DNA of 15,517 bases, taken from IMG/VR virus record IMGVR_UViG_3300032038_001095; one strand, given 5' to 3'. Source of the DNA: a virus. Numbering within the stretch: the stretch's first letter is position 1; every line of letters starts with the position of its first letter. Both the position numbers and the translations under genes were made by a program. Under the pieces are notes generated by a model. The model did no database searches and was not told the DNA's origin. It saw only the letters and a program-made list of their open reading frames with translations. Positions 1 to 14,291 of the stretch are shown in pieces.

Positions 1-35
1 AAGCTACTCTCGTTTTACCATTAAACTATAAACCC
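1..35 (-). tRNA. 5' portion of a tRNA truncated by the window edge (acceptor GGGTTTA, D-arm GTTT/AAAC)
   Basis: rc of 1-40 reads GGGTTTATAGTTTAATGGTAAAACGAGAGTAGCTT: 7-nt acceptor, TA, 4-bp D-stem with AATGGTA loop; remainder lies outside window. Confidence 0.4.
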
Positions 36-232
36 ATTAATAAGAAATAAGTTACTTTCCGCGGCATCCGTATCAAACCTCAGGGACGGCTTAACTAATT
101 ACTCGAGTTTTAGTGGGGAAGTTTTTTGTTTGCGCTAACAGGGAATCACTTAATCCCCCCTGCCGCTGGGCTTTCACTCACTTATTTCTTATATATTTAT
201 TATATTAAATTTTTTAATAAAAAACAAATAAA

Positions 233-433
233 TTAATCATCATCATCAATATCTTTTTTATAATTCTTTTTTGGCTTTACAGGTTTCATTTCAGAAACTT
301 TCATTCCCCATTTAAAATTCTTTTTCTTACGTTCCCATCTTAATCTAGCTTTTTCTTTAGGGTCTTCCGCAATATTTTCAGGATTCCATTCTTCTAAAGC
401 GTTTGTTGCTACTTTTGTCCACTTACTAGACAT
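233..433 (-). CDS. hypothetical small basic protein (66 aa)
   Basis: ORF with ATG at 433, AAAGGAGAA upstream, TAA stop; Lys-rich. Confidence 0.55.
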   Translation of the reverse strand: MSSKWTKVATNALEEWNPENIAEDPKEKARLRWERKKKNFKWGMKVSEMKPVKPKKNYKKDIDDDD

Positions 434-471
434 ATAGTATTATTCTCCTTTTTATTTAAATATAAAATAAT

Positions 472-544
472 TTGAGATATTAGGATTTGAACCTAAATCT
501 AAATCTATTTAAAGATTTTATGTTTCCTTTTACACCATATCTCA
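472..544 (-). tRNA. tRNA with non-canonical anticodon arm (anticodon undetermined)
   Basis: perfect 7-bp acceptor TGAGATA/TATCTCA, D-stem GTGT/ACAT, canonical T-arm TTAGG-TTCAAAT-CCTAA; anticodon helix AAATCT/AGATTT gives 6-nt or 8-nt loop (UUUAAAUA) instead of 7. Confidence 0.5.
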
Positions 545-556
545 AACAGGTATTAC

Positions 557-904
557 TTATCCCTGAAGAAAAGATCCCAATAGATCAAAAAAAGAATCTA
601 CATTATATTTGTCATTTTCATTTTTTGTGGCACTTTTGTTTTTTACATCATCAGTAGAATAAGACATATGGAAATATCCATATTCATTTGTAAATTCTTT
701 TAGCAACTTAATAGCTTTTGCCTGAGCTTCATTAGCTTCTTTCAAAGCCTGTTCGACTTCTTTAGCTTTTGTTGCTCTTGCATTTTTCTTAGCTTTTTCA
801 GCTTCAAGCTTTTTACGCTCTTCTTCTCTTGCTTTTGTTTCCGCTTTGATCAGTTCCTGTTCTGTATCATAAAGCGCGTTTAATGTTTCACTGTAGTATT
901 TCAT
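557..904 (-). CDS. hypothetical coiled-coil protein (115 aa)
   Basis: ORF, RBS AGGAAAGG before ATG at 904, TAA stop; Lys/Glu/Ala-rich heptad-like sequence. Confidence 0.65.
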   Translation of the reverse strand: MKYYSETLNALYDTEQELIKAETKAREEERKKLEAEKAKKNARATKAKEVEQALKEANEAQAKAIKLLKEFTNEYGYFHMSYSTDDVKNKSATKNENDKYNVDSFFDLLGSFLQG

Positions 905-1016
905 AATTGTTAGTTCCTTTCCTAACTTTAATATTTTTTTACTGGTTTTATTTTTAGTTGGGGGCTAGCGTCCTAGTCACGTTTCTGAAAAATCAGGCGT
1001 CATTCCAGTTACCCAA

Positions 1017-1089
1017 GGTGACCGATGGGATTTGAACCCACATAAGGCGGATCCACAATCCGCTGCATTACCAAATCTGCCACAGCCAC
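1017..1089 (-). tRNA. tRNA-His (anticodon GUG), no encoded G-1, discriminator C73
   Basis: acceptor GTGGCTG/CGGTCAC, anticodon arm GCGGA-TTGTGGA-TCCGC, T-arm GTGGG-TTCAAAT-CCCAT; base at -1 on the coding strand is T. Confidence 0.85.
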
Positions 1090-1091
1090 AA

Positions 1092-1166
1092 TCGGAGTAG
1101 CGGGACTCGAACCCACAGTCTCTTCATCCCAAATGAAGCGCGCTAGCCAAATTACGCTATACCCCG
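1092..1166 (-). tRNA. tRNA-Pro (anticodon UGG)
   Basis: acceptor CGGGGTA/TACTCCG, D GCGT/GCGC, anticodon arm CTTCA-TTTGGGA-TGAAG, T-arm GTGGG-TTCGAGT-CCCGC; 2 nt upstream of tRNA-His. Confidence 0.9.
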
Positions 1167-1224
1167 ATAATCAAGACACATTTAATACTATATTGCTTTA
1201 CCAATTAAGCTACCTATACCTAAA

Positions 1225-1250
1225 GGCATAAGATTGGATTTGAACCAATT
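1225..1250 (-). pseudogene. tRNA 3' half only (T-arm ATTGG-TTCAAAT-CCAAT + CTTATGC + C), no matching 5' half
   Basis: T-arm and 3' acceptor strand present; required 5' strand GCATAAG absent; flanked by 9-bp inverted repeat AAGACACAT (1174-1182) / ATGTGTCTT (1286-1294). Confidence 0.35.
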
Positions 1251-1311
1251 TAACATATAACATACTTGTATATATATTTTGCTGTATGTGTCTTATATAT
1301 TTTATAAATAT

Positions 1312-1340
1312 ATTATATAATAATCTTTTTTAAAAATCAA
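1312..1340 (-). promoter_or_regulatory. sigma70-type promoter (minus strand TTGATT-N17-TATAAT)
   Basis: rc reads TTGATTtttaaaaaagattattaTATAAT; member of repeated promoter family. Confidence 0.55.
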
Positions 1341-1480
1341 AGATAATCTCTTAATTCAATATATTCTTCAAAAGAACCTAAAAAACCTTCTTTTACTGCT
1401 TGGTCATATTCTTTTCTAATTTTCTATTCGAAAGTTAAATTTTCCTAATCATTATGAGTCATTACTGATTTATTTTCCAT
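1337..1480 (-). CDS. hypothetical 47-aa protein with two in-frame TAG codons (needs TAG readthrough)
   Basis: GAGAGG RBS 6 nt before ATG at 1480, 3 nt after stop of upstream gene; open to TGA at 1337 only if TAG is sense. Confidence 0.35.
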
Positions 1481-1483
1481 TAT

Positions 1484-1813
1484 TTATCCTCTCAGACTAT
1501 CAATGTAGTCTTTTGCTTCTTTATGAGCAAGAATTGCTTCCTGGTTATAAAGAATCATCTGATTTAGACGTTCTTCTGCTTTCATTTTATTTTCTACGGC
1601 TTCCTGAAGTTTTGTCATAGAACGCTTCATTCTTTTCTTTGTTACTTTTTCTTCGCAGCGGGCGGCCGCCAGCTTTCTTCCAAAATCTGGATCATAATTA
1701 TCTCTAGGATCCAGCTTAGCTACTCCACGAATTGTCTTTCCTGCATAAGTTGAAACTGCGATTGTTTTATTATCTGCTGTTGTAAAAAACTTATACTTTG
1801 TAATTGGAAACAT
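1484..1813 (-). CDS. hypothetical protein (109 aa)
   Basis: ORF, RBS AGAAAGG before ATG 1813, TAA stop. Confidence 0.65.
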   Translation of the reverse strand: MFPITKYKFFTTADNKTIAVSTYAGKTIRGVAKLDPRDNYDPDFGRKLAAARCEEKVTKKRMKRSMTKLQEAVENKMKAEERLNQMILYNQEAILAHKEAKDYIDSLRG

Positions 1814-1843
1814 ATTTTTTTACCTTTCTTATTTATTTTTTAG

Positions 1844-1930
1844 CGACGGCAAAGGGACTCGAACCCCTAATACGCTCATCACGTATTAACGCTTTTCAAG
1901 AGCGTCTCCTCATCCAGCCGGATTACCGCC
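1844..1930 (-). tRNA. tRNA-Ser (anticodon UGA), class II with long variable arm
   Basis: acceptor GGCGGTA/TGCCGTC, anticodon arm ACGCT-CTTGAAA-AGCGT, variable hairpin AATACG..CGTATT, T-arm AGGGG-TTCGAGT-CCCTT. Confidence 0.9.
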
Positions 1931-1943
1931 AAAACAAGAGTCA

Positions 1944-2015
1944 TATGCAAGGAGGGATTCGAACCCTCATAGAATCCTTAAAAGGGATTTGTCTTAACCG
2001 TTTGACTACTTATTT
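1944..2015 (-). tRNA. tRNA-Lys (anticodon UUU) with mismatches at acceptor positions 2 and 3
   Basis: anticodon arm AATCC-CTTTTAA-GGATT, T-arm GAGGG-TTCGAAT-CCCTC, D-arm GTCA..AGAC; 5' strand AAATAAG vs 3' CTTGCAT gives A2-A71 and A3-C70 mispairs. Confidence 0.6.
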
Positions 2016-2038
2016 AAAATTGCTGTATGACTCTTTCG

Positions 2039-2130
2039 CGGTCACAGGTGGATTCGAACCACCGGACGAGGAATTTCCCCGTCGGCGGATTAGCAATCCG
2101 CTGCATTAAGCCAAACTCTGCCATGTGACC
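2039..2130 (-). tRNA. tRNA-Ser (anticodon GCU), class II
   Basis: perfect acceptor GGTCACA/TGTGACC, anticodon arm GCGGA-TTGCTAA-TCCGC, long variable hairpin, T-arm GGTGG-TTCGAAT-CCACC. Confidence 0.9.
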
Positions 2131-2139
2131 ATATACAAG

Positions 2140-2215
2140 ATAGTTTATTTGCGTACGACTCGAACGTACTTTCATTACTTTTGCAGAGTAATTTATCATC
2201 CAGAGATATTAAATA
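2140..2215 (-). pseudogene. degenerate tRNA-like element (Cys-GCA-like anticodon arm plus T-arm, no valid acceptor)
   Basis: TTACT-CTGCAAA-AGTAA and GTACG-TTCGAGT-CGTAC present but 7 extra nt between T-stem and the only complementary acceptor strand; D-arm not formable. Confidence 0.3.
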
Positions 2216-2236
2216 TTGCTGTAACTATCTTTAATC

Positions 2237-2308
2237 TAGCTCGCTAGGGAATCGAACCCTAGATTCTAGTTTTAGAGACTAGCGTCTTAACCACTTGACC
2301 ACCGAGCC
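2237..2308 (-). tRNA. amber suppressor tRNA (anticodon CUA, reads UAG)
   Basis: acceptor GGCTCGG/GCGAGCT (6 bp, G7-G66 mispair), D-arm GTCAAGTGGTTAAGAC, anticodon arm CTAGT-CTCTAAA-ACTAG with U33 and A37, T-arm TAGGG-TTCGATT-CCCTA, A73. Confidence 0.85.
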
Positions 2309-2310
2309 AG

Positions 2311-2339
2311 ATAGCATATAAATTTAATATATGCTATAT
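2311..2339 (-). promoter_or_regulatory. perfect 9-bp hairpin immediately upstream of the suppressor tRNA 5' end
   Basis: ATAGCATAT aaatttaat ATATGCTAT; ATAGCATAT motif recurs at 2506. Confidence 0.3.
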
Positions 2340-2692
2340 TTAATCTATATAAATATAAATTTTTTCATTTACTTAACGCCTAGACATTATTAAGGGGTCT
2401 GCGTTGCCACACCTCATCCATTTTTATAAAATAACGCCTCAATTCAAAAATTTATATTTATATTTTTTCTTTCTTCATTTATTGTTTAATCTGTTAGTTA
2501 AACTCTATAGCATATTATAGTTTTCAAAAGAGGATCAATAAGTACAGAAAAATTAATTAAGTATATTTAGAGGATTATAATAATAAAATAAATAACATAT
2601 GCTTTATTTATTTTATTCTTCAACTATCGTATGAAGAACGTCTGCGGATATATCATTTCACCATACAGAAGGACTCACTTAGGGGGAGTCAA

Positions 2693-2775
<83 letters not shown>

Positions 2776-2829
2776 GTTTATTATTATTCAAATAAAGTTT
2801 TTAATACAAAAGATACTATATATAGATAA

Positions 2830-2938
2830 TTATCAGGGTGAGGATTTGCACCTCACATGACACCCGCGAGAATTTGTTTGTGTCAGATGCTACCTCGCGA
2901 TCCATGTAGTCTATGTCTACCTATTCCATCACCTGATA
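2830..2938 (-). ncRNA. tRNA-like structured RNA (E1) with about 55-nt internal insertion and non-canonical T-loop
   Basis: perfect terminal stem TATCAGG/CCTGATA (extendable to 9 bp), TG, class-II-like D-arm ATGG-AATAGGTAGA-CAT, 6-bp hairpin GTGAGG-TGCAAAT-CCTCAC; middle has crossing CGCGAG/CTCGCG and TGACAC/GTGTCA pairings. Confidence 0.5.
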
Positions 2939-3047
2939 ATATGGTCTTTTCCCATTGCCATCCATATTCTACCATGAAGGGTATCACTGCATTAGTCTCC
3001 CAGTGCGGATATCCGCTATCCAGAATGATCTGGCATCACTTTATCAA

Positions 3048-3237
3048 ATATACTGGTAAGGATTTACACCTTACATGGAAGATTCTGAACTTACGTTAGG
3101 ACTCCATTGCATACTACCCACTCGTGTCTTCCTTCAATCCATCGACTACTTTCAGTCTGATTGCAATTCGATTTCTGATTTCATCGCTGCACCAGTTACC
3201 CAATGCAGTAAGCGTCTACTTATTCCGCCACAGTATA
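3048..3237 (-). ncRNA. tRNA-like structured RNA (E2), paralog of E1, Leu-like D-arm, about 115-nt insertion
   Basis: perfect terminal stem TATACTG/CAGTATA, TG, D-arm GCGG-AATAAGTAGA-CGC (near-identical to tRNA-Leu D-arm), 6-bp hairpin GTAAGG-TGTAAAT-CCTTAC; CTTAC/GTAAG can close the insertion. Confidence 0.5.
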
Positions 3238-3357
3238 TATACAAGACAGCATAAAAAATATTTTTTAATAAAAACCTCTTGTATTTGTTAATGTTAAAAT
3301 AAATTTTTTGATTATTTTGCTGTTTTCTACTGTCTTTATATTAAGATTATTTACTTA

Positions 3358-3702
3358 TTATGCCTGATACTCATCCTTAAAATACCATACATCTCCGTAA
3401 GCTTTATGTGTCTTGGTTCTGCCGTTTAGAGCATCCCCAATACCAGACTTACCTTCCTTACCAATTGCCGCCAAAGCTTCCTTCTGTGTCGCATATTCTG
3501 CAATAATCTTTCCTGTTTCTGCATCAATACGAAGGATTCCGCTCTTATTAGGACTCTTTCTCTTCTTCTTAGCAGCTTCTTCCGCAGCCTGCATTTCCTC
3601 AAGATAGGTGCTGAGGACATCAATTACCTGCTCCTGGATACCTGGATCAAGTTCTCCAGAATGTTCAAAATAAAATAACAAACCCTGTACTTTATCTTTC
3701 AT
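3358..3702 (-). CDS. small protein with NUMOD/IENR-like HTH C-terminal domain (114 aa)
   Basis: ORF with AAAAGGAG RBS; C-terminus SGILRIDAETGKIIAEYATQKEALAAIG...YGDVWYFKDE resembles the DNA-binding NUMOD motif of homing-endonuclease-associated proteins. Confidence 0.55.
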   Translation of the reverse strand: MKDKVQGLLFYFEHSGELDPGIQEQVIDVLSTYLEEMQAAEEAAKKKRKSPNKSGILRIDAETGKIIAEYATQKEALAAIGKEGKSGIGDALNGRTKTHKAYGDVWYFKDEYQA

Positions 3703-3735
3703 AAAAATAAATCTCCTTTTTTCTCTTTTATAATT

Positions 3736-3764
3736 ATTATAACAAAAAATTTATATATTATCAA
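3736..3764 (-). promoter_or_regulatory. sigma70-type promoter TTGATA-N17-TATAAT
   Basis: rc reads TTGATAatatataaattttttgtTATAAT, 30 nt upstream of RBS of 3358-3702. Confidence 0.6.
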
Positions 3765-3774
3765 TTTTTTGAAG

Positions 3775-3845
3775 TTCTCAGGTAAGGAATCGAACCTTAC
3801 AACTAATACAAAGTATTAGAATATTTACCATTAATATTACTGAGA
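3775..3845 (-). tRNA. tRNA with ambiguous anticodon arm (UUU with C33, or UUG)
   Basis: acceptor TCTCAGT/CCTGAGA (6 bp + U7-C66), D TATT/AATA, T-arm TAAGG-TTCGATT-CCTTA; anticodon helix CTAAT(A)/(T)ATTAG leaves loop ACTTTGT or 5-nt CTTTG. Confidence 0.5.
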
Positions 3846-4344
3846 ATTTTATAAATAATACATAGAAAGGAAGATTAAAATATAATTTGTTTAAATTATA
3901 TTTAAAATGTCCTATGTAGGAACTGCCCCTACTCCTCTTATCGCCGCGTCTATCCAAGACATTTGCTCAAGGAAGCTAATTTTATAGGACACGCGGAAAC
4001 GGCTTCCGCACTCCTTTTACCTCTTTTATTAAAAAGAGTGGCTCTCCACTCGAATAGAGATTAAAGATAGATGGTTATTATCCTTTAAGGGGTCTATCAA
4101 CTCCCAGTATTAAAATTAAGTATATTTCGCTTTTTTCATAATCGTCTTCCGCCGGAAATATACAAACTGGTCAGGGACTACGTTCGTCGCTCACGAGACA
4201 AAATATTAATCTCAGGCCCAGAGTTTCCTTATCCTGTGTTCTATTGAAGTCACAATGCTTCAATCTGTGGTCACTTAATATTTCCGCAGGGCTTCATTCC
4301 TACACGTCATATCCTGTTAATTCAGGCCTTACAATCCCTTGAAG

Positions 4345-4416
4345 TAACCGGTAGGAGAATCGAACTCCTGTCCTTACCGTGAAAGGGTAATATCTTAGCC
4401 ACTTGACTAACCGGTC
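4345..4416 (-). tRNA. tRNA-Glu (anticodon UUC)
   Basis: acceptor GACCGGT/ACCGGTT, D-arm GTCAAGTGGCTAAGAT, anticodon arm TTACC-CTTTCAC-GGTAA, T-arm AGGAG-TTCGATT-CTCCT. Confidence 0.85.
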
Positions 4417-4844
4417 CTATGAGACTTACGCTTTGCCTCCGGTATGGGCACACCATTGCCGGCGGTAAGCTGTCTAAGTCTTTATGCTTGGTATTGCGAA
4501 CATGCCCCAAGCGGCGACTCCATTAATTTCTTCTCACTCCGCAGAGTGGAATTTGTCGCTGTGACGTAACAGCGAATCCCCTGATAGCCAATCTTTGGAC
4601 GACCGAGGGTCGGGTTCAACCCCTTATCTGTGCATGACCTATGTTTTCGTTTTAATGTACGAAAACGACATATCTTTATATTCTTTACTCCTAGAATTAA
4701 GACTTAACCGGCATCACTTGAGATGCTTTCAGATTTATAATTGGCAAGAAATAAATCAATTCTTTGATTATCAGGTTATCATCCCAGCCTAACGATGGCT
4801 GACGACCTGTGAATTAAGGTTTTAACAGGTTTTACTTACCTTAA

Positions 4845-4916
4845 CGGGGTTAGAAGGATTTGAACCTTCGTAGTACGGTTAACAGCCGTAAGTCCTAACC
4901 ACTGGACGATAACCCC
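4845..4916 (-). tRNA. tRNA-Asn (anticodon GUU)
   Basis: perfect acceptor GGGGTTA/TAACCCC, anticodon arm TACGG-CTGTTAA-CCGTA, T-arm GAAGG-TTCAAAT-CCTTC. Confidence 0.9.
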
Positions 4917-5049
4917 CTTTTCAAGACCTAATAGACTCTTTTTTGTAAAAATGAGGATACCAAATTCGTTCTATTTTTAAATCTACCTCGTTGCTTTCCC
5001 TAAACTTTTATTCATCAGATATTAAATTGCAGTATAGGTCTTTAAAAAA

Positions 5050-5154
5050 TTAATTAAAAAGTTTGTTTAACTCATCTTCATCTTCTTTAGTCAGTATAAA
5101 TTCAAAATCTTCATATTCTTCATAAGATTCATAGAGATCAAAATCATCAAACAT
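5050..5154 (-). CDS. hypothetical very acidic 34-aa peptide
   Basis: AAAGGAGAAA RBS 6 nt before ATG 5154, TAA at 5050; family promoter 25 nt upstream. Confidence 0.35.
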   Translation of the reverse strand: MFDDFDLYESYEEYEDFEFILTKEDEDELNKLFN

Positions 5155-5185
5155 ATTTTATTTCTCCTTTTCTTTTGATATATAT

Positions 5186-5214
5186 ATTATATCAAAAAAC
5201 TTTTTAAAAATCAA
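5186..5214 (-). promoter_or_regulatory. sigma70-type promoter TTGATT-N17(TG)-TATAAT
   Basis: rc reads TTGATTtttaaaaagttttttgaTATAAT. Confidence 0.6.
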
Positions 5215-5360
5215 TAAATAACGTATTGGTTGAGAAAATTAATAATTGATTTTGAATCTGGACTATGTTGTGCTTCATAGAGATTAATGAACATATGTTC
5301 ATCATTAAAAAACTACTTTAAAAAAGTAAACAATTTTAAATCCTCCTTTCTTTTTTAAAA

Positions 5361-5432
5361 CGGCTTTATTGGGAATCGAACCCAAATCTCTTGATAGACA
5401 GTCAAGTATGCTAACCTTTACACCATAAAGCC
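5361..5432 (-). tRNA. tRNA-Asp (anticodon GUC)
   Basis: perfect acceptor GGCTTTA/TAAAGCC, anticodon arm CTTGA-CTGTCTA-TCAAG, T-arm TTGGG-TTCGATT-CCCAA. Confidence 0.9.
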
Positions 5433-5511
5433 AAAGTTATTTTTCTCAGCCTGTTTTACGTCTCCTGCCTTCAGAAAAATAACAAAACCCTGTTTAGACG
5501 CTATAACTTAT

Positions 5512-5688
5512 TTAATAATCAAATTCCCGAGAAATCTTATCATATATCTCAGTTTTTTCAAATTTTACTGTTCCAAACCTATCTTCCAAAAATTTTACCT
5601 GAGAATAACCTTTGACAAATGTAATATGCTTTTTGTTATCATCATCTTTATAATTGACCATATAAACCACTTCTTTTTTATTTACCAT
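5512..5688 (-). CDS. hypothetical protein (58 aa; possible start at 5709 instead)
   Basis: GAGGAGG 8 nt before ATG 5688; in-frame ATG at 5709 lacks an SD; TAA stop. Confidence 0.55.
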   Translation of the reverse strand: MVNKKEVVYMVNYKDDDNKKHITFVKGYSQVKFLEDRFGTVKFEKTEIYDKISREFDY

Positions 5689-5743
5689 AGTCAAAGCCTC
5701 CTCAACCATTTTTTAAGTTTGAAGTTTTTCTTTTGATATATAT

Positions 5744-5772
5744 ATTATATCAAAAATTTTTTTAAATATCAA
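5744..5772 (-). promoter_or_regulatory. sigma70-type promoter TTGATA-N17(TG)-TATAAT
   Basis: rc reads TTGATAtttaaaaaaatttttgaTATAAT. Confidence 0.6.
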
Positions 5773-5834
5773 GACGTTTTATTTTATAGATTAACAGTCT
5801 ATTCCTTTATTATAATTGCTGTAAACGTCTTTAA

Positions 5835-5907
5835 AGCCGCCCGTGGGACTTGAACCCACAACCTAGAGTTTACAAAACTCTTGCGCTGCCAATTGCGCTA
5901 GAGCGGC
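5835..5907 (-). tRNA. tRNA-Thr (anticodon UGU)
   Basis: acceptor GCCGCTC/GGGCGGC, D GCGC-AATTGGCA-GCGC, anticodon arm AGAGT-TTTGTAA-ACTCT, T-arm GTGGG-TTCAAGT-CCCAC. Confidence 0.9.
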
Positions 5908-6628
5908 ATAAAATGGCGGTCTTTATATATTGGCGCCCACCATTCCTTGAAAAAATAATACTATTTTGGAGTTTTTATGTTCCGGCGCTGCCCTTCCCTT
6001 TTGAGTAGTTTTATACGGACTACCATCCGCTTGATCAAGAAATTTTTTCTTTCCCTCACGACATAGAAAAAATTATCAAAAAATCTGTGCCGACAATACT
6101 AGTCTCTTTTTAGTTATTAAGCCAACTTGGTGAATAGTATTGTAAATAATATCCAATGCTATAAATTTTTTATGTTAAAAAATTTATAAAAAATCACCTT
6201 TTTACGATCGCTTAATGGTGGTGTTAAAAGGAAACCGCACCAAAAATTTTATATCCTATAGAGTTTTTATTAGTTTAATTCCAAATCATCTTAACTTATT
6301 TTTAATTAGCCCAATGGACCATACCTCCATTTCGTTAGGATAAATGCTATACCAAAGTCTTGCACTTTGATTTCCAATTTAATGGCGACTTAACTTTTAG
6401 TCGAGTATAGCCGCATTGATTAAAAAGGTAACTTCATCAATGCTTAAGATTGTGAATCTCATAAGTTTTTCCTTAGTTATTTTAAAAAAGTAGATTAACC
6501 TCTGAACTACTCACAGGGGGCACGTTTTGCTGCAACTAATGGCTCTCCCTTTCTTCACTCTCAACGATTTGCAGATCGCAAGGAGGAGGTTTTATCCCGC
6601 ACTTATAGTGGAGGCGGATCTCCACTAG

Positions 6629-6701
6629 TGAGAGACACGGGATTCGAACCCGCAAAAACTAGTTTCTAAAACTAGAATGTATGCCGTTCCATCAATCTCT
6701 C
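6629..6701 (-). tRNA. class-I tRNA with anticodon UAG (reads CUA; Leu by codon table), A73
   Basis: acceptor GAGAGAT/GTCTCTC, anticodon arm CTAGT-TTTAGAA-ACTAG, 5-nt variable loop, T-arm GCGGG-TTCGAAT-CCCGT; standard 73-nt numbering fits. Confidence 0.8.
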
Positions 6702-6742
6702 TCGGAATATTTTCCAATTCCTTTTCTTAACTTTCTATAAAT

Positions 6743-6771
6743 ATTATATAATATTTTTTAGAAAATTTCAA
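6743..6771 (-). promoter_or_regulatory. sigma70-type promoter TTGAAA-N17-TATAAT directly upstream of the UAG-anticodon tRNA
   Basis: rc reads TTGAAAttttctaaaaaatattaTATAAT; -10 is about 42 nt upstream of tRNA 5' end. Confidence 0.55.
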
Positions 6772-7169
6772 ATAAAAACATTTGAAACGACTATATTAAG
6801 GTTATCGGTTTATATTAATTATTGTAAGTATCTTGAATGGGCAGAGTGGGTGCCGACCCCACTACGCTAAAGAGCAACGGTTTTACAGACCGCCGAGTTT
6901 GCCGATTCTCTGTACCTACCCATGTGGGGTAGTTGAGCTCCCGCTCTAAAGACTAGCCACCCTGCGCCTAGATCTTTTTCCCTGCACCACTCGATGGGAA
7001 AAAATCCAAAAAACTCATGAGGATCACGTTTAGCTACATAGTCACGTCTGACATTTTTCACTATACTAATGACCTTGTACTTCGATCTCCCGTTACTATA
7101 ATCCAACCAGAACGGTGAAGAGGGTGTTCTTAGGTACCGCTAAGGAGCTACCTTAGACGGAGAACACAG

Positions 7170-7242
7170 TAGCGGAACTAGGATTCGAACCTAGGATTAC
7201 TAGCTTATGAGGCTAGTGTCTTAACCACTTGACGATTCCGCT
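7170..7242 (-). tRNA. tRNA-Met elongator type (anticodon CAU; Ile-lysidine type not excluded)
   Basis: perfect acceptor AGCGGAA/TTCCGCT with A1-U72, D-arm GTCAAGTGGTTAAGAC, anticodon arm CTAGC-CTCATAA-GCTAG, T-arm CTAGG-TTCGAAT-CCTAG. Confidence 0.85.
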
Positions 7243-7543
7243 TCATTGTCGGTCTTCCACCGACAGTTTTTAGAAGTTACTTTCTTCATCGGTATAGATT
7301 TTACTTCCCTATACTGAAGTTTACCGAGTGTGCAGTTGATCCTAATCCTCCTTTAGGCTTTGAATCCTACGGTATACTCGTTTCGGATCTTAATCACACG
7401 CATCTCCTGTGAATTGCATAGACTTTATTGATTTATCACCGTATATTACGGCGCTGTGTTCTCCCCACAGATGTTCCACATACAGAGCTTTATTTTCTTA
7501 TCGGCTTTTAATACTTGCCTATCGGTATTTGTTTTATATAATT

Positions 7544-7572
7544 ATTATATAATAATTTTTTTAAAAAATCAA
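7544..7572 (-). promoter_or_regulatory. sigma70-type promoter TTGATT-N17-TATAAT facing the tRNA-Met region
   Basis: rc reads TTGATTttttaaaaaaattattaTATAAT; overlaps stop codon of 7573-8121. Confidence 0.55.
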
Positions 7573-8121
7573 TTACGGCCACTCTCCAAGTGGTTTACCA
7601 AGTGCTCCATGCTCAATATCTGTATTAAAATAAACAGGAGCATTATAAAATTCTTTATATTCTTCAAAAACATCATTTGCAATTGTTTCATAAAGAGTAC
7701 TTACAATACCATGACAATCATTTAAATTATCATTAAAAAACTGAACTACATAATTCTTAAATACAACATAAGTTGCAGGAATCCAATATGTATCATCTCC
7801 TGGAGTAACTGCATAAGCAAAAGCAGGATTTCCCTCAAATGCAACTTCAAAAAGTTCTTTTGCAGAAGTAAAAGTACGATTTGAAGGAACACCATCAATA
7901 GAAATATTAAGTACAATATTTCCAAAAACTTTTTCTGTTGGAAGTAATTCCATTAAAGCAGCTGTTTTATCTCCATTTCCACAAGCAAGTACAACAGAAG
8001 GTCCATCACTAGTATTGTAATTTACATTAAATGCAATAAGCGGATCGCCATCAAAAAGAGCCTACAATTCATTTACATATGTAATCCACGGGGGTGAAAG
8101 TTTAAGTCTTACATCACTCAT
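7573..8121 (-). CDS. hypothetical protein (182 aa) with one in-frame TAG (codon 20, 8062-8064)
   Basis: AAAGGAG RBS 9 nt before ATG 8121; frame continues through TAG into the 126-aa standard-code ORF 7573-7953; TAA stop. Confidence 0.7.
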
Positions 8122-8324
8122 TTTTTATTTCTCCTTTTTAAAAATAAACTAGGATACGTCTGCAGCCGCCTAGACTCTTTTTCGCCGAGCAAGCGAGAAA
8201 GTTTTTAGCCACAATCTCTATCGCCGCGTGCTTACCATGTCGCCGGTTAAGTTCTACGTCTTAAAACGTTTAGTTTTATTTAAATTGATAGACTAAATAA
8301 CTATCAGTGGCTTCGTCAGCCAAA

Positions 8325-8397
8325 AGCACCATGTGGGAATCGAACCCACCCCAGAAGATTGGAAATCTACTATACTAATCCAATATACGAATGGTGC
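8325..8397 (-). tRNA. tRNA-Gly (anticodon UCC)
   Basis: perfect acceptor GCACCAT/ATGGTGC, anticodon arm GTAGA-TTTCCAA-TCTTC (one U-U mispair), T-arm GTGGG-TTCGATT-CCCAC; D-loop 9 nt. Confidence 0.75.
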
Positions 8398-8596
8398 ATA
8401 ATTCGGGATAATGGCCATCTTTCCCTATACTTTCAACACTTTGAATAACTACGGCGGAGAAACCTATTAACCCATCCGCGCATATACGACATCTTTAGTT
8501 TTATGGTAAAACTACTGAGGAGTATATGAGGCAATCTGAAAACCTTTACTTTTATTAAGGAATAAAGTAAATAAGACCTTTATATTTTATAGTAAT

Positions 8597-8625
8597 ATTA
8601 TATCAAAAATTTTTTAAAAGATCAA
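8597..8625 (-). promoter_or_regulatory. sigma70-type promoter TTGATC-N17(TG)-TATAAT facing tRNA-Gly
   Basis: rc reads TTGATCttttaaaaaatttttgaTATAAT. Confidence 0.55.
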
Positions 8626-8638
8626 ACAGGTTTTGTCC

Positions 8639-8935
8639 TTATTTACTATGATAACATTTTTTCCAAAATTTATAAAGCTCTTTAAGAGTTGGATAATGTT
8701 CTCGTAAATAAGTATTTTTTAATCCATTTTCCCATTCTTTTTTTACTTCAGGCCATGACCATCTTGATATATAATCATGAATATTCCAAGAGTTATATAG
8801 TTTTTTATAATTTTTGCCATTTGCAAGATTATTTTTATATTTTCTAACTATTTTATTAGCCCTTCGTTTCCATGGTTTTCTTCCTGCTTTTCCTCCATCT
8901 GTACAATAAGGATGTTTTTTAAAAGAACGACTCAT
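8639..8935 (-). CDS. hypothetical basic protein (98 aa)
   Basis: ORF, RBS AAAGGAAGG before ATG 8935, TAA stop. Confidence 0.65.
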   Translation of the reverse strand: MSRSFKKHPYCTDGGKAGRKPWKRRANKIVRKYKNNLANGKNYKKLYNSWNIHDYISRWSWPEVKKEWENGLKNTYLREHYPTLKELYKFWKKCYHSK

Positions 8936-8963
8936 ATATTTTTCCTTCCTTTTTTTATATAAA

Positions 8964-8992
8964 TATTATATAAAAAATTTTTAAAAAAGTAA
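8964..8992 (-). promoter_or_regulatory. weaker promoter (TATAAT -10, TTACTT -35)
   Basis: rc reads ttacttttttaaaaattttttaTATAAT upstream of 8639-8935. Confidence 0.4.
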
Positions 8993-8996
8993 AATA

Positions 8997-9422
8997 TTAC
9001 TATATTCGATACGTATTAATATATGCTAATCCCCAAGAGGGTATCTAAGAATGGTTATTGACATATATATCTATACATCCTTCTTCTACTCCGCGGTCTT
9101 CGCATGTATAATACCCTAAACCCTCAACATAAAGTACTGTTCCATATGGTATATCTTCTCCACATGCACATGTATGATTAGCTTGCGGCCACGCCCCTGA
9201 TGCAGTTGGAGATCCAGCCCATTCTCCACAACAACAAGAGCCGCCGCAATAAAAGGTAACTCTATATTCTCCTAAATAAATTCTTGTCTATTGATAATTA
9301 AATTTCTACTAAATTAATTGCTATTTGAACTAAAGTGTTTTATCACTGATAGCAAATATATTTGAACATGTTAAAAATATCAGTAGAATCATACTACTGA
9401 TTAATTTTATTATTTTTTTCAT
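8997..9422 (-). CDS. secreted 3D-domain protein (MltA-C/YocH-like cell-wall binding/lytic fold), 141 aa, 7 in-frame TAG codons
   Basis: AAGGAGG 6 nt before ATG 9422; N-terminal signal peptide MKKIIKLISSMILLIFLTCSNIFA; motif VTFYCGGSCCCG...TASG...PYGTVLYVEGLGYYTCEDRG...IDIY; readable only if TAG is sense; TAA stop. Confidence 0.75.
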
Positions 9423-9440
9423 TTATTTCCTCCTTAAAAA

Positions 9441-9514
9441 TAGGGACGAGGGGACTTGAACCCCCAGCCTTTGGTTTATAAGACCACTGCGCTAACCGAT
9501 TGCGCCACGCCCCA
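9441..9514 (-). tRNA. tRNA-Ile (anticodon UAU) with U1-U72 mispair
   Basis: acceptor TGGGGCG/CGTCCCT (6 bp + U-U at 1:72), D GCGC-AATCGGTTA-GCGC, anticodon arm GTGGT-CTTATAA-ACCAA, T-arm GGGGG-TTCAAGT-CCCCT; ends 6 nt before RBS of 3D gene. Confidence 0.75.
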
Positions 9515-9518
9515 GTAT

Positions 9519-9806
9519 TTAACATATAAAATATTTTCGTTTAATAGCTTCCTTATTTATAAAAAGGGTAAATCTGTGGCAATCCGCATAAGATTGCCAC
9601 TCCCATGTAAGGACTCTTTGATTTAAAAATTTAAAATTTATTGCATGGAACTGATTTTTCAAAAGAAGAACATAATCTGTCAAAGATATATTTAACATTC
9701 TTGCGGGATGCCACCAATATGCACTACCGTGCGCTAAATCACTAACATCATTGGTGTACCATTTTCCATTCATTTCCCATTCAGTAAATTTTAAAATATG
9801 CGACAT
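9519..9806 (-). CDS. hypothetical protein (95 aa)
   Basis: ORF, RBS AAAGGAAAA before ATG 9806, TAA stop 4 nt before tRNA-Ile. Confidence 0.6.
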   Translation of the reverse strand: MSHILKFTEWEMNGKWYTNDVSDLAHGSAYWWHPARMLNISLTDYVLLLKNQFHAINFKFLNQRVLTWEWQSYADCHRFTLFINKEAIKRKYFIC

Positions 9807-10129: not shown

Positions 10130-10344
10130 TATTCATTTACCTCGATATATTCTCTCCAATGTTCTGCAAAATAACTTTTAGTTCGGGTTCTGTCTGATGG
10201 TTCGCCTGTAAAAGGATTGATACTAAAAGTATATCCATGTTTACAAAAGCCCTTTTTTCCAGCTTTCTTCATATTCTGCTTAGCGATAGCTCTTTTCTGT
10301 TCTCTTGTTACAATATAATTTTTTGGAACATTCACTTTTGTCAT
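10129..10344 (-). CDS. hypothetical basic protein (71 aa)
   Basis: ORF; TAGGAG RBS; ATG overlaps TGA of upstream gene (ATGA). Confidence 0.6.
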   Translation of the reverse strand: MTKVNVPKNYIVTREQKRAIAKQNMKKAGKKGFCKHGYTFSINPFTGEPSDRTRTKSYFAEHWREYIEVNE

Positions 10345-11159
10345 TTATTTTTCTCCTAAAATGATATTACTATATTTTGATTTTTTAAAGCATAATGTAA
10401 ATCAATAATACGATCACAAATTTGACAAGCGCCATTAGCATTCTTCATACAACGTTTATCACAACTTACTCTTGATTCTCCAAAACGAGGTATAATATAT
10501 TTATTATCTTCTTCTCCTTCATAACCTACAATTAAATCTTTTAATTTTCCATACCATTGTCTATCTTTAGCATAGACTTGATACAAAGTATTTAATCTTA
10601 CAGGATCATCTATATTGGCATAAAATTCAAAAGTATCAATATAATTTTCATAAACTTCTAAGTCTTCAGGTCTAATAAAAAAAGTTTTTATTGAAGGAGT
10701 TTTTTCCCAAGAAGATTCACATACATTACAATAACTGCGTAAAGATTTATTATTTTTTTTAGCATTAAAACTAAGAATTTTAGCATTAAATGCTAAATCT
10801 TCTCCAATAAAGATGTCTGTTACATTTAATTTTAAAAAACCTTGAAATTTATCCCAGGTGGTAATAATTTCATTATAATAATATGGAAAATTATGTTTAT
10901 TTAAATAATTATCTAATTCATTATTAAAAAATGGCATACAGATAAATAATTTACAATTTGGATACTTTTCTTTTAAAGCATCTAAAATTTCAAAATCATT
11001 ATCTATTATGTTATTTTTAAAAATTAAATTAATTCGATGTGACCCATATTTTTCAATAAAATTATCTAGTTCTTTAATTTTTGGTTTATAGTTAATATTT
11101 AATTGAATATCCTAATTTAAATAATTAAATTTTCTAAAAAATGGAATAGCAAATCCCAT
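10341..11159 (-). CDS. hypothetical Cys-rich protein (272 aa) with two in-frame TAG codons (11112-11114 and 10356-10358)
   Basis: AAAGGAGAAA RBS before ATG 11159; frame reads through TAG at codon 16 into ORF 10356-10937 and through its TAG terminus to TGA at 10341 that overlaps the next ATG; C-terminal CX3CX7CX2C cluster. Confidence 0.65.
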
Positions 11160-11225: not shown

Positions 11226-11420
11226 TTATTCAAAATTTCGTATATCATTTTCCCATTTTCGCTGTTTTTCTTTTCTTAAATCTTTACGTCTCGGCATAGC
11301 ATTCTTTTTAGCATGATAATCTTTACAAAATTGACATGTTTTTTTAAAAGTACCTTCATGCCCTTTTAAACAATTGCCTTCATTTAAATAATAAACACAA
11401 ACCCTTTCTCTATCTTTCAT
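11226..11420 (-). CDS. small Cys-rich basic protein (64 aa)
   Basis: ORF, AGGAGAAATA RBS, TAA stop. Confidence 0.6.
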   Translation of the reverse strand: MKDRERVCVYYLNEGNCLKGHEGTFKKTCQFCKDYHAKKNAMPRRKDLRKEKQRKWENDIRNFE

Positions 11421-11429
11421 TATTTCTCC

Positions 11430-12122
11430 TTATTCATAAAATCCACTATAATCAATTAAAACAGGACGATTCTTTATATAACCAATATTTTCATTTCTTA
11501 AATCATCATCCCATCCTAAAAGAGATATAAAATCAATAAAACTAAGTAATTGTTCTTCTCCATAGTATAAACGAAAATCTGTTAACCAGTCTTGATTTAT
11601 ACCATAATATTTACAACAATTAAGAGTTTTTATTTTTTCTTCTTTGTTATGTTTATGATTTGTATCACTAAAAGTAGTGCATCTTTCTTGAACATAAATA
11701 GGATAATTATTTATAAATCCTAATAATTCAGTTTTTGCAAAATATTCTGCAAAGCCTTCTGCTAAAGCTGTATTATATCGTTCTACTTCACAAGCACAAT
11801 AGTCCCAAATACGTTCTTTGTTTTCCGCTGCACAATACTCCCAATAATCTACTCTTTCTGGATAATAATTAGAATAACTATCGTAATATTCATATTCATG
11901 GTTATAAGAACCTGTATATGGAATTTTAATTACATAATCTTTTTCTTTATTTAATGGAATGAGTGCGAGCTTGGTGGCCCCATAAGCATAATAATAAAGA
12001 TTAAAAAAATCATTGCCCATATAATTGAAAAATTCATTATTTTTACCCTCATGAAATTCCATTCCATCATAAAAAGGGACTACAGATAACATTTTTAAAA
12101 GTTCTTGTCTATCATATGTCAT
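11430..12122 (-). CDS. hypothetical Tyr/Glu-rich protein (230 aa)
   Basis: ORF with RBS and family promoter upstream, TAA stop. Confidence 0.7.
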   Translation of the reverse strand: MTYDRQELLKMLSVVPFYDGMEFHEGKNNEFFNYMGNDFFNLYYYAYGATKLALIPLNKEKDYVIKIPYTGSYNHEYEYYDSYSNYYPERVDYWEYCAAENKERIWDYCACEVERYNTALAEGFAEYFAKTELLGFINNYPIYVQERCTTFSDTNHKHNKEEKIKTLNCCKYYGINQDWLTDFRLYYGEEQLLSFIDFISLLGWDDDLRNENIGYIKNRPVLIDYSGFYE

Positions 12123-12157
12123 TTAAAATACCTTCTTTGTATTTTTTATATAACATA

Positions 12158-12186
12158 ATTATATCATATATTTTTTAAAAAATCAA
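12158..12186 (-). promoter_or_regulatory. sigma70-type promoter TTGATT-N17(TG)-TATAAT
   Basis: rc reads TTGATTttttaaaaaatatatgaTATAAT. Confidence 0.6.
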
Positions 12187-12213
12187 AAAAGGAAGCTTTT
12201 ACGCTTCCTTTTT
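12185..12213 (-). terminator. rho-independent terminator (hairpin + T-run), symmetric
   Basis: AAAAAAGGAAGC ttttac GCTTCCTTTTT; on minus strand followed by TTTTTTGATTTTTT; overlaps -35 of next promoter. Confidence 0.6.
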
Positions 12214-13098
12214 AATAATACAACGGGAAAGTTTTGTCTGCTTGATTCCTTTATATTCTGAATGTTCTTTTACCGTTCCCGTAAGAAGAATTTCTTCTCC
12301 TTCTTCAATATCTTTACAAGAGGAAGTAATCCATACAAGAACATTTTCTCCATATGTAAAAGTATAAATAAATGATGTGCCATAAAAACTATCAAAACTG
12401 CGGACTGCGGTTAATGTAACCTTAAGATCGCGGAGTCTCTCTTTTATCTCCCCGACATATTCAGAATGAGATTCAGGTTCAAGTGTTGCTTTAGCAGCGT
12501 CCGCAATCTCTTTAGCATTATCTTTAAGTTCAAACCTTTCAGAAAGCGGATACCAAACATATACATCATAAAAATTAATACTTGCCATACCATAACCAAT
12601 AGGAACATCAATTGGATGGTTACTATACCAGCCAAATGCAGGATTAAATTTACATCCCATTTCTTTAAGCTGGTCTTTAATTTCATAGGTACTGCCGCCG
12701 CCAACTAACCAGATAAGAGGATTTTCTACATTATATCCCCACTTAGCAAGAAGTGCTTCCTGGTTTTCTTTACTTTTGTTAAGTTTTTCCTGTCTTTCAA
12801 GTTCAGCTTTTTCAGCTTTCCTTTCTTTTGCTCGTTCCTGAGAAGCAAGATATTTATTCATTTCTTCTTCAGTATAAGCTTTTACCCATTTATGGATTTT
12901 TCCGTCTCCGTGACATTTATAACAAATGCCACCATCAACAGGAATAGGAATAATATGACCATTTTCTACTCTTGCTGCGATAAGACCGGAACCGCCGCAA
13001 CGATCACACTGTTCTTCAATATAAGCCTTTTTTGTATCTTCATTAACAGAGAGGATCTTTGCGTTTTTATAAGAGGGAGCAACTTTCCAATTCATCAT
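12199..13098 (-). CDS. hypothetical protein (299 aa) with N-terminal zinc ribbon (CDRC...CYKCHGDG)
   Basis: ORF, RBS AGGAAG before ATGATG, TAA stop. Confidence 0.7.
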   Translation of the reverse strand: MMNWKVAPSYKNAKILSVNEDTKKAYIEEQCDRCGGSGLIAARVENGHIIPIPVDGGICYKCHGDGKIHKWVKAYTEEEMNKYLASQERAKERKAEKAELERQEKLNKSKENQEALLAKWGYNVENPLIWLVGGGSTYEIKDQLKEMGCKFNPAFGWYSNHPIDVPIGYGMASINFYDVYVWYPLSERFELKDNAKEIADAAKATLEPESHSEYVGEIKERLRDLKVTLTAVRSFDSFYGTSFIYTFTYGENVLVWITSSCKDIEEGEEILLTGTVKEHSEYKGIKQTKLSRCIIKKEA

Positions 13099-13131
13099 AG
13101 GTCATACTTCCTTTCTTCTTTTGATAAATAA

Positions 13132-13160
13132 ATTATATCAAAATTTTTTTAAAAAATAAA
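13132..13160 (-). promoter_or_regulatory. promoter with extended -10 (TGaTATAAT), weak -35 TTTATT
   Basis: rc reads tttattttttaaaaaaattttgaTATAAT. Confidence 0.5.
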
Positions 13161-13161
13161 A

Positions 13162-13395
13162 TTAAATTGCTCTTCTTACTTTCCTTGCAATATATTCACA
13201 CTCGTCTTCTGTTATATTAATAATATTATGATTCTTAAAGACTGTAGTTTGAATGGTATCGTTATTAATATCATAACCTTCTTTTGCCATTTTAATAAAA
13301 TCTTTAATAGCAGCCTCAATATGAGTTTGTCTGGTACTAGTTACAGATTCTATACCTTCGGCTTCCGCAATATAAAGAAAATAATCTAATCTCAT
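13162..13395 (-). CDS. hypothetical protein (77 aa)
   Basis: ORF, AAAAGGAG RBS, TAA stop. Confidence 0.6.
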   Translation of the reverse strand: MRLDYFLYIAEAEGIESVTSTRQTHIEAAIKDFIKMAKEGYDINNDTIQTTVFKNHNIINITEDECEYIARKVRRAI

Positions 13396-13425
13396 ATTTT
13401 AATCTCCTTTTTATTTTATAAATAT

Positions 13426-13454
13426 ATTATAATAAAAAAAATATAAAAAAGCAA
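13426..13454 (-). promoter_or_regulatory. promoter TTGCTT-N17-TATAAT overlapping terminator stem
   Basis: rc reads TTGCTTttttatattttttttatTATAAT. Confidence 0.45.
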
Positions 13455-13474: not shown

Positions 13475-13476
13475 TT

Positions 13477-14280: not shown

Positions 14281-14291
14281 TTTTTCTCCTT

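Follow-up and report, generated by a model that had tools for sequence, protein, structure and literature searches.

A tRNA-Glu-derived amber suppressor accompanies in-frame TAG codons in a phage and probably reads them as glutamate

The 15,517-nucleotide IMG/VR virus record IMGVR_UViG_3300032038_001095 (the window, by which we mean this whole stretch at its full length) encodes on its minus strand, at 2237–2308, a tRNA with the anticodon CUA, and on the same strand four protein genes that contain TAG codons in frame. We propose that this tRNA derives from a tRNA-Glu, that it would be charged by glutamyl-tRNA synthetase (GluRS) and that it would read TAG as glutamate in a subset of genes, with a role in the timing of their expression; the probability of this model as a whole is put at roughly 0.6. 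It concerns the following features (aa, amino acids).

2237–2308, minus strand: amber suppressor tRNA, anticodon CUA, with a tRNA-Glu body (ARAGORN, Rfam RF00005, covariation and isotype profiles)
4345–4416, minus strand: tRNA-Glu(UUC), the standard paralogue of the suppressor (ARAGORN, Rfam)
8997–9422, minus strand: gene of a 141-aa secreted protein of the 3D-domain family, seven TAGs at codons 31, 34, 38, 39, 45, 126 and 141
7573–8121, minus strand: gene of a 182-aa protein, TAG at codon 20, 57 nt after the ATG
10341–11159, minus strand: gene of a 272-aa cysteine-rich protein, TAG at codons 16 and 268
1337–1480, minus strand: 47-aa gene, two TAGs (codons 12 and 19), translationally coupled to 1484–1813

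The window sequence is contained, at 99.97% identity, in a 48-kb metagenome contig of the ENA (stretches L001 and L139), and the genome covered here amounts to about 24 kb, namely the window and about 9 kb past its right end (L001/L139); the full genome probably reaches at least 135 kb. Over these 24 kb, TAG terminates none of 32 genes. The 20 genes of the window stop at TAA (17) or TGA (3) and never at TAG, as had been noted in the first-pass annotation made from the sequence alone, and the 13 genes of the adjacent L139 stretch stop at TAA (9) or TGA (4), again never at TAG. The sole TAG-ending open reading frame (ORF), 6867–7106, has a TTG start and lacks a ribosome-binding site (RBS); it was rejected as a gene, since it is a spurious product of the divergent tRNA-Tyr at 6837–6922, which it overlaps on the same strand. 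Re-prediction with TAG as a sense codon, a check that the same annotation had suggested, raised the coverage of the window by coding sequence from 48% to 54%, the rise being small because the tRNA array has long spacers. TAG-sense models were also those used by the public gene caller on the contig containing the window.

The four genes with in-frame TAG were found as first described, each with an AGGAG-type RBS and an ATG, and together they hold 12 TAGs. In the 141-aa protein, five TAGs separate the signal peptide from the domain, and the homologs show the same whole architecture; TAG126 sits within the conserved motif NNHS#IPSWG. The 3D domain that had been recognized in this protein stands for its family, 19 of whose 23 members match PF06725 (best E value 3.9e-20), though not for the window's own copy taken singly, which scores 13.9 bits against the Pfam cutoff of 23.8. 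A cell-wall-active or lysis-associated role is probable for it. For the 182-aa protein there are more than 1400 homologs, almost all of full length, and its most conserved residues, R5, K7, P10, P11 and W12 (invariant), precede TAG20. For the 272-aa protein, 120 homologs are listed, mostly with 97–100% query coverage, and a motif M-x-F-A-I-P-F lies upstream of TAG16; codon 16 is TAG in L001, L002, L063, L133, L135 and L137. A scan of 68 further IMG/VR loci for the sequence context of TAG16 returned almost nothing, these relatives being too distant. The 47-aa gene is kept in L064, L008, L007 and L017 (tblastn), where the copies contain their own in-frame stops. Neither Pfam nor PHROGs assigned a function to the 182-, 272- or 47-aa protein. 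Beyond the window, the adjacent part of the contig holds a divergent four-gene module with 15 more in-frame TAGs.

Some TAGs stand directly ahead of another stop. The 141-aa gene ends in TAG (9000–9002) followed at once by TAA (8997–8999), and so does the L063 DNA (6799–6804); a terminal 'Q' in seven database homologs (P0121, P0122, which is that of L063, P0123, P0124, P0126, P0127 and P0132) implies the same TAG-TAA end. In the 272-aa gene a TAG lies five codons ahead of the TGA, and the L063 copy ends in TAG-TAA. Such codons look like former TAG terminators that were kept and are now read through.

The protein sequence is conserved on both sides of the TAGs in the 182-, 272-, 141- and 47-aa genes, and independent assemblies, as well as relatives with as little as about 57% protein identity (57–77%), have TAG at the same codons. 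Since the homologs are conserved on both sides and TAG terminators are absent, TAG is, with high confidence, a sense codon decoded by the phage's own tRNA at 2237–2308. Without recoding, the TAG-containing ORFs would be pseudogenes or would start downstream, and the CUA tRNA would be a decaying or incidental copy. Indeed, standard-code ORFs with an ATG persist downstream of TAG16 and TAG20, and NCBI annotates one homolog in this way: MBR3674001.1 (P0264), a homolog of the 272-aa protein, has 225 aa there versus 269 aa from TAG-sense callers, a difference that is standard-code shortening at TAG16. However, in the 182-aa protein no part is better conserved than the residues upstream of the TAG, and the 272-aa family conserves its upstream residues too, so that the N-terminal extensions, whose possible lack of conservation the first-pass annotation had raised as an objection, prove to be among the best-conserved parts of these proteins. 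The 141-aa gene, moreover, would be fragmented or lose its signal peptide, TAG is shared at the same codon by lineages 57–77% identical in protein and is never a terminator, and the suppressor itself, as described below, shows compensatory evolution and an invariant anticodon loop. Pseudogenes or downstream starts cannot explain this pattern; the conservation data effectively refute the absence of recoding, which we hold to be very improbable.

The suppressor gene was called by ARAGORN at 2236–2309 (minus strand, anticodon CTA), and positions 2237–2308 match the covariance model RF00005 over the full length with 58.2 bits (E value 1.3e-10; gathering score 29), so both programs accept the tRNA, which covariance models might have rejected. 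The acceptor stem, first counted as 6 bp, has seven positions with a G1·U72 wobble, a G7·G66 mismatch and C3-G70; the discriminator is A73, and CCA is not encoded. It is followed by a 3-bp D stem with a 10-nt D loop containing GG, a 5-bp anticodon stem, the 7-nt anticodon loop CUCUAAA with U33 and A37, as initially read, a 4-nt variable loop (AAUC) and a canonical T arm, GGTTCGATTCC. Among the six orthologues (window, L063, L008, L056, L042 and L064), nine of 20 pairs show double compensatory changes and the anticodon loop is unchanged in all six. Because of these compensatory pair changes and the invariant anticodon loop, the gene is kept as a working tRNA, i.e. the substitution pattern is that of a real suppressor tRNA under selection. 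The proposal of a stop reassignment inside a phage that carries its own decoder is thus borne out, in that TAG is sense in a subset of genes and a CUA tRNA is encoded.

ARAGORN labels this tRNA 'tRNA-Pyl', which would make TAG a pyrrolysine (Pyl) codon. The label is automatic and is triggered by the anticodon CUA alone. A tRNA-Pyl has a short D loop without GG, a 6-bp anticodon stem and a 3-nt variable loop, in place of which the suppressor has the 10-nt D loop with GG, the 5-bp anticodon stem, the 4-nt variable loop and the canonical T arm given above. No pyl gene occurs in the 24 kb, and the residues found opposite TAG are E, D and Q and are not dominated by K. Pyrrolysine has next to no likelihood.

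The body of the suppressor points to tRNA-Glu. Its D arm, GUCAAGUGGUUAAGAC, is the same as that of the tRNA-Glu genes of related phages, with U11-A24 invariant across the six orthologues, and with the tRNA-Glu(UUC) of the window it has in common G1·U72, A73, the D arm GUCAAGUGGYUAAGA and the 4-nt variable loop. When profile hidden Markov models were built from the related phages' own tRNAs with the anticodon masked, the suppressor scored 40.2 bits for Glu, 34.9 for Asp and 20.4 for Gln; six of the seven nearest related tRNAs are tRNA-Glu. The orthologue in the syntenic relative L063 has the acceptor stem GGCUCGG/GCGAGCU-A, close to that of the tRNA-Glu of L063 (GGCUCCG/UGGAGCU-A) and not to that of its tRNA-Gln (UGGGGUG/CACCCCA-G, with U1-A72 and G73). 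Gln-type identity elements (U1-A72, G73, U38 and a Gln body) were sought in the suppressor and none is present, while the body elements used by GluRS are there: U11-A24, the 'augmented' 3-bp D stem region and the lack of residue 47. Judged by these features, the suppressor is a derivative of tRNA-Glu.

The residues that face TAG in homologs point the same way. At TAG126 of the 141-aa gene, 10 of 11 close homologs have E and one has D, leaving aside P0121, a copy of 93% identity that shows 'Q', and the L063 DNA carries a genuine Glu codon at this position. Four TAGs of the adjacent divergent module (L001/L139) fall on columns with E in 8/11, 6/6, 3/4 and 3/4 sequences, and the second TAG of the 47-aa gene aligns with E in L064. 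In the 272-aa protein, the TAG268 column holds D33, E25, N19, K16 and Q2, and that of TAG16 holds Q39, D28, E22, K10 and N5. The last excess of Q is an artefact: all six copies that could be read in DNA have TAG at this codon, and all three proteins looked up are marked 'translates_to_query: no', so that the 39 database 'Q' are TAGs written as Q by the public gene caller. Database homolog alignments taken by themselves were discarded as misleading for this reason, and the matter was settled by reading the DNA. At codon 20 of the 182-aa gene, the DNA of relatives has TAG in 8–15 loci, E in 22–23, Q in 8–9 and K in 6. Tallied over conserved columns, five TAGs of this genome face E and none faces Q. 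TAG is probably inserted as glutamate in this phage, as far as alignments and tRNA features indicate.

The first-pass annotation had pointed to code 15, in which TAG is glutamine. In that reading the system would be the same, and glutaminyl-tRNA synthetase (GlnRS) would mischarge the suppressor, or charging by GluRS would be followed by amidation through GatCAB, the Glu-like body being a trace of ancestry. The CUA anticodon with U35 resembles CUG, which could invite GlnRS, and G1·U72 is a weak first pair that GlnRS-type enzymes can open. All reported phage reassignments of TAG are to Gln (bioRxiv 10.1101/2021.08.26.457843; PMC9523058; PMC10607447), codon 20 of the 182-aa gene is a genuine Q codon in the 8–9 relatives just mentioned, and Q is the best single fit when all related loci are pooled. 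On the other side stand the tally over conserved columns, the missing U1-A72, G73 and U38, the presence of C3-G70, a Gln profile score 20 bits below the Glu score, and the gene caller's habit of rendering TAG as Q in database homologs.

The pooled result was examined by translating all ORFs with TAG as X and comparing them all-against-all, keeping only TAG sites with well-aligned flanks. A first tally over 52 related IMG/VR loci favoured Q, a result that we rejected for the window since the signal splits by type of suppressor tRNA. In loci with a Glu-type suppressor (72 sites), the aligned residues are E (.33), Q (.14), K (.11) and D (.10), with a log-likelihood ratio of E over Q, LLR(E−Q), of +21.6; controls of 72 genuine E sites gave +59 ± 7 and genuine Q sites −64 ± 7.5. 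In loci with other suppressors (165 sites), Q (.32) precedes K (.17) and E (.12), the LLR is −112.9, and a two-component fit gives 0.12 E, against 0.71 E for the Glu-type loci. When the set was enlarged and de-duplicated to 56 loci that carry a CUA tRNA, the majority residue per site is E87/Q20 for the Glu-type and E62/Q74 for the others (Fisher p = 9e-9), and on strongly conserved columns alone E15/Q4 versus E5/Q9. The sister lineages behave in the same manner, as L060, L004 and L033 have suppressors of Gln profile, with Q opposite their TAGs; for L060, whose 182-aa protein is 73% identical to that of the window, Q reaches.55 and the LLR is −30.9. Split in this way, the pooled Q signal stems from other lineages, and tRNA type and codon alignments agree in both directions, insofar as sequence comparison can tell. 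Loci with a Glu-type suppressor give E far more often than Q, and residue alignments and tRNA body alike favour Glu over the code 15 assignment, so that glutamine is an unlikely reading of TAG in this phage, though one with a real share of the probability.

The same numbers bear on ambiguous decoding, in which the suppressor pool would be charged partly with Glu and partly with Gln, whether by partial amidation or by dual recognition, and TAG would be tolerated where either residue works. The mixture fit for the Glu-type class (0.71 E and 0.29 Q) and its LLR between those of the pure controls would suit such a state, as would the many TAGs in linkers and at variable surface positions and the E, Q and K accepted at column 20 of the 182-aa protein. 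However, the class with other suppressors is diluted in a similar way (0.12 E), so that much of the dilution is probably noise and mutational neighbourhood, and the conserved columns are fairly clean (E15 versus Q4). We rate ambiguous decoding as improbable.

For the reading as glutamate we envisage the following course. A duplicated tRNA-Glu would have acquired the anticodon CUA and so would pair with UAG, and the host's GluRS would charge it with glutamate, as its identity rules suggest. These rules comprise U35, A37, U11-A24 and a missing residue 47, with U34 and C36 also used (PMC9976931). Amidation of Glu-tRNA to Gln-tRNA by bacterial GatCAB requires U1-A72 as the first pair, and G1-C72 is disfavoured (PMC2811023). 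Because the U1-A72 pair that GatCAB needs is absent from the suppressor, the glutamate bound to it would not be amidated to glutamine, and TAG would be read as Glu. The length of the D loop, considered as a further antideterminant for GatCAB, was dropped, as the related phages' own tRNA-Gln has a D loop of the same length as the suppressor.

The distribution of TAG along the genome suggests a use for such a code. Part of the window is free of TAG and includes two genes of recognizable type.

11226–15517, minus strand: TAG-free gene block, with 64-, 230-, 299-, 77- and 61-aa genes, the Thg1-like gene and the C-terminal part of the MVP-shoulder gene
13477–14295, minus strand: Thg1-like tRNA-His guanylyltransferase (Pfam 3e-30; PHROG 3.5e-85)
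14567–15517, minus strand: C-terminal part of an 826-aa protein with a major-vault-protein (MVP) shoulder domain, continued in L139 7431–9911

The block counts about 1,400 codons and not one in-frame TAG, and forms the standard-code part of the genome. TAG is likewise absent from the whole 826-aa MVP-like gene and from a HAD-like gene, in contrast to seven TAGs in the 3D-domain gene and 15 in the divergent module. In the close relative L056, an NlpC/P60 lysin has 26 TAGs and two proteins of 709 and 619 aa, probably structural, have 19 and 20, in contrast to none in a DUF2828 protein. The TAG-free genes (Thg1-like, HAD-like, MVP-like and their neighbours) would be translatable upon transcription, and the TAG-containing genes would not yield full-length protein until the suppressor competes with release factor 1. 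Late and lysis functions would in this way be timed by TAG itself, a role that has been proposed in other recoded phages; the observed distribution fits a recoding that delays late functions.

Several points weigh against the assignment of TAG to glutamate and the charging by GluRS. In the anticodon set U34/U35/C36/A37 recognized by GluRS, the suppressor keeps only U35 and A37 and has C34 and A36 instead, and U34 and C36 are strong GluRS determinants in Escherichia coli (PMC9976931); tRNAs with a CUA anticodon can moreover be mischarged by GlnRS (cited in bioRxiv 10.1101/2021.08.26.457843). In the window proper, no more than four or five TAG sites give an informative alignment. The TAG signal is diluted, its LLR of +21.6 lying well under the +59 of genuine Glu sites, and Q still makes up 9–15% of the aligned residues; mixed charging, recent code switches or noise could cause this. 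L078 and L079 have Glu-type suppressors yet Q-leaning sites, which speaks for glutamine. A second suppressor type, a release factor or a synthetase could be encoded elsewhere in the genome, beyond the 24 kb. The assignment is drawn from alignments and tRNA features alone. MBR3674001.1, which comes from a metagenome-assembled genome labelled 'Clostridia bacterium', gives a weak hint about the host.

The suppressor belongs to a larger set of tRNA genes.

471–9514, minus strand: array of 16 tRNA genes with small genes between them (ARAGORN, Rfam)

The array contains His, Pro, two Ser, Lys, the CUA suppressor, two Leu, Glu, Asn, Asp, Thr, Met, Gly, Ile-UAU and one tRNA with an 8-nt anticodon loop. 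The Rfam tRNA model reaches its gathering threshold for 15 of the 16, and the Ser-UGA matches the tRNA-Sec model below threshold. None of the 16 genes encodes a 3' CCA, so that maturation of these tRNAs would depend on a CCA-adding enzyme; many tRNAs in the related IMG/VR loci do encode CCA. The tRNA-His(GUG) at 1017–1089 (minus strand) has the discriminator C73 and a T at position −1, i.e. the G-1 required by histidyl-tRNA synthetase is not encoded in the genome. The Thg1-like enzyme at 13477–14295 could add G-1 opposite C73 after transcription.

Several other tRNAs depart from the usual form. The tRNA-like gene at 471–545 (minus strand; Rfam 51.6 bits, 24% G+C) has the 8-nt anticodon loop UUUAAAUA, for which ARAGORN gives the anticodon 'uaaa', and it has a counterpart in none of 138 related loci; it may represent a decoder of quadruplets or frameshifts, a tRNA reading UAA or UUA, or a decaying copy. 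The divergent tRNA-Tyr(GUA) at 6837–6922 (minus strand), found only at a relaxed ARAGORN threshold, has a non-canonical T loop, GGGGUCGGCACCC, and is most similar to tRNA-Tyr genes of related phages; its spacer is kept with L063 (74% over 330 bp, G+C 0.40, folding z −2.7). The tRNA at 6629–6701 (minus strand) with the Leu anticodon UAG is of the short type I, without the long variable arm of a normal bacterial tRNA-Leu. Across the related loci the short form is found in 37 of 53 UAG tRNAs and 26 of 34 CAA tRNAs, and the long form in 51 of 55 UAA tRNAs. Other stop-reading candidates occur among the relatives: a 90-nt tRNA(UUA) in L026, L029 and L031 at 8833–8922, a 97-nt tRNA(UCA) in L037 at 7128–7224 and, in L044–L047, an 89-nt CUA tRNA with a Leu-like body, where the few TAG sites align with Y, L or H. 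L035 has, near 10001, an in-frame TAA at codon 20 of its 182-aa homolog. The long-arm Leu- or Tyr-like CUA tRNAs of a few loci and the UUA and UCA tRNAs hint at still other stop-codon meanings.

Two ORF-free spacers of the array, 4484–4714 and 6262–6593, are 77–79% identical to L063 and fold with z values of −2.6 and −1.95 against shuffled sequences; neither matches an Rfam family, and they may be unlisted RNAs, degenerate tRNAs or processing signals. An Rfam scan of the array spacers by E value found no ribozyme, riboswitch or other family, and a YrlA-like match of 25.8 bits was dismissed against its threshold of 69. A minimal ribozyme of the hepatitis delta virus (HDV)-like type (theta) abuts the 3' end of some phage tRNAs (PMC10879173). 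In 1–9700, no HDV-like family was found at E ≤ 1, a scan in which coverage of the theta motif by Rfam 15 was not established and the motif itself was not searched. An intergenic repeat of about 45 bp, at 7528–7572 and 14493–14543 and 82–89% identical to several intergenic sites of L063, is probably a promoter, a terminator or a regulatory repeat.

With respect to the phage itself, the window has 32% G+C and all of its genes are on the minus strand. Codon usage in its genes is unusually skewed, with GAG 28 versus GAA 222 and AAG 58 versus AAA 236, and CAG (43) exceeding CAA (33). The 826-aa protein, which adjoins the Thg1-like gene and is TAG-free, matches the MVP shoulder domain of Pfam (2.2e-23) and faintly Vault_3; this shoulder is a domain uncommon in phages. 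A megablast search with the whole window found, among 50,697 phage records, a single match of 54 bp, i.e. no close deposited phage at the DNA level, and INPHARED held no DNA match for the window and none for the proteins tested. The best relatives at the protein level are large Bacillus phages, and SPbeta-like YonG/YonD genes in the relative L060 give a hint on lineage or host. The window is probably part of a large tailed phage of gut or rumen Firmicutes, of at least 135 kb.

Amber suppression is long familiar in E. coli, where supE (tRNA-Gln CUA) and supF (tRNA-Tyr CUA) are mutant alleles of low efficiency in cells that have kept TAG as a stop. As in these, an elongator tRNA would have been turned to UAG by an anticodon change, would rival release factor 1 and would insert the residue set by its identity elements. 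Unlike them, the suppressor of the window is a conserved dedicated gene, in a genome purged of TAG terminators and with TAG inside conserved genes. The nuclear code of peritrich ciliates (NCBI table 30) reads TAA and TAG as Glu and is, to our knowledge, the only natural code with UAG as Glu. The likeness lies in a tRNA-Glu-like suppressor that makes UAG glutamate; the difference is that peritrichs have a eukaryotic nuclear code, genome-wide for TAA and TAG and with an altered eRF1, whereas the window comes from a virus that would switch the code in a standard-code host.

Knowledge of phages in which TAG is recoded with suppressor tRNAs goes back to about 2014, and standard annotation tools now deal with such genomes (bioRxiv 10.1101/2021.08.26.457843; PMC9523058; PMC11210395). 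The window resembles the crAss-like, Lak, Garnet and Amethyst 'code 15' gut phages (Borges et al., bioRxiv 10.1101/2021.08.26.457843; Peters et al., PMC9523058; Cook et al., PMC11210395) in having in-frame TAG in conserved genes together with a phage CUA tRNA, in not using TAG as a terminator, with hosts presumed to follow the standard code, and in combining a TAG-free genome part with TAG-rich lysis genes and, in its close relatives, large and probably structural TAG-rich genes. It differs from them in lineage, as indicated by the SPbeta-like genes of L060 and the lack of an INPHARED match, and in that those phages read TAG as Gln, as seen by mass spectrometry in two crAss-like phages, whereas here we find a tRNA-Glu derivative and alignments with Glu. 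Where the codes of phage and host differ, Borges et al. report no reassignments other than TAG to Gln and TGA to Trp (bioRxiv 10.1101/2021.08.26.457843), and we found no report of a phage reading TAG as Glu in the literature. The phAss-1 group, the proposed Phassvirus (Babkin et al. 2023, PMC10607447), whose genomes come from gut viromes and measure about 136 kb, carries about 36 tRNA genes, two or three of them tRNA-Sup-CTA, and has TAG in about 40 ORFs, mostly virion genes, and its predicted hosts are Clostridia. Its authors assign Gln from TerL alignments and tRNAscan-SE, and its suppressor is of another type than that of the window. With respect to kinship, the 182-aa protein of the window had no tblastn match in the phage collection, where the presence of phAss-1 records was not checked, so that no relationship was found, nor could the phage be placed in a named genus.

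The window phage thus has the defining features of the recoded crAss-like, Lak and phAss-1 phages except for the amino acid, and as it shows neither the alignment with Q nor the Gln-type tRNA of code 15, it is not filed here under that code; if the assignment to Glu is wrong, it is one more member of the known TAG-recoded phages. Whichever residue is right, related database proteins have Q at TAG by convention, as pipelines working with table 15 (prodigal-gv, geNomad, Pharokka-gv) render every recoded TAG as Q, and standard-code annotation shortens them. If TAG is Glu, the database residues for this lineage are probably wrong, with consequences for structure prediction, proteomic searches and alignments. 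The code would then be the first with TAG as Glu in a virus or bacterial system, and it would contradict the working rule that phages in standard-code hosts are confined to TAG as Gln and TGA as Trp, GlnRS and tryptophanyl-tRNA synthetase being unusually easy to hijack, GluRS with an escape from GatCAB being a third route. We lean, by a modest degree, towards the view that within one family of large Firmicutes phages TAG was captured more than once by different tRNA lineages, as Gln by Gln-type and as Glu by Glu-type suppressors. Close phages with different meanings of one codon would offer a natural system for the study of codon capture and re-capture.

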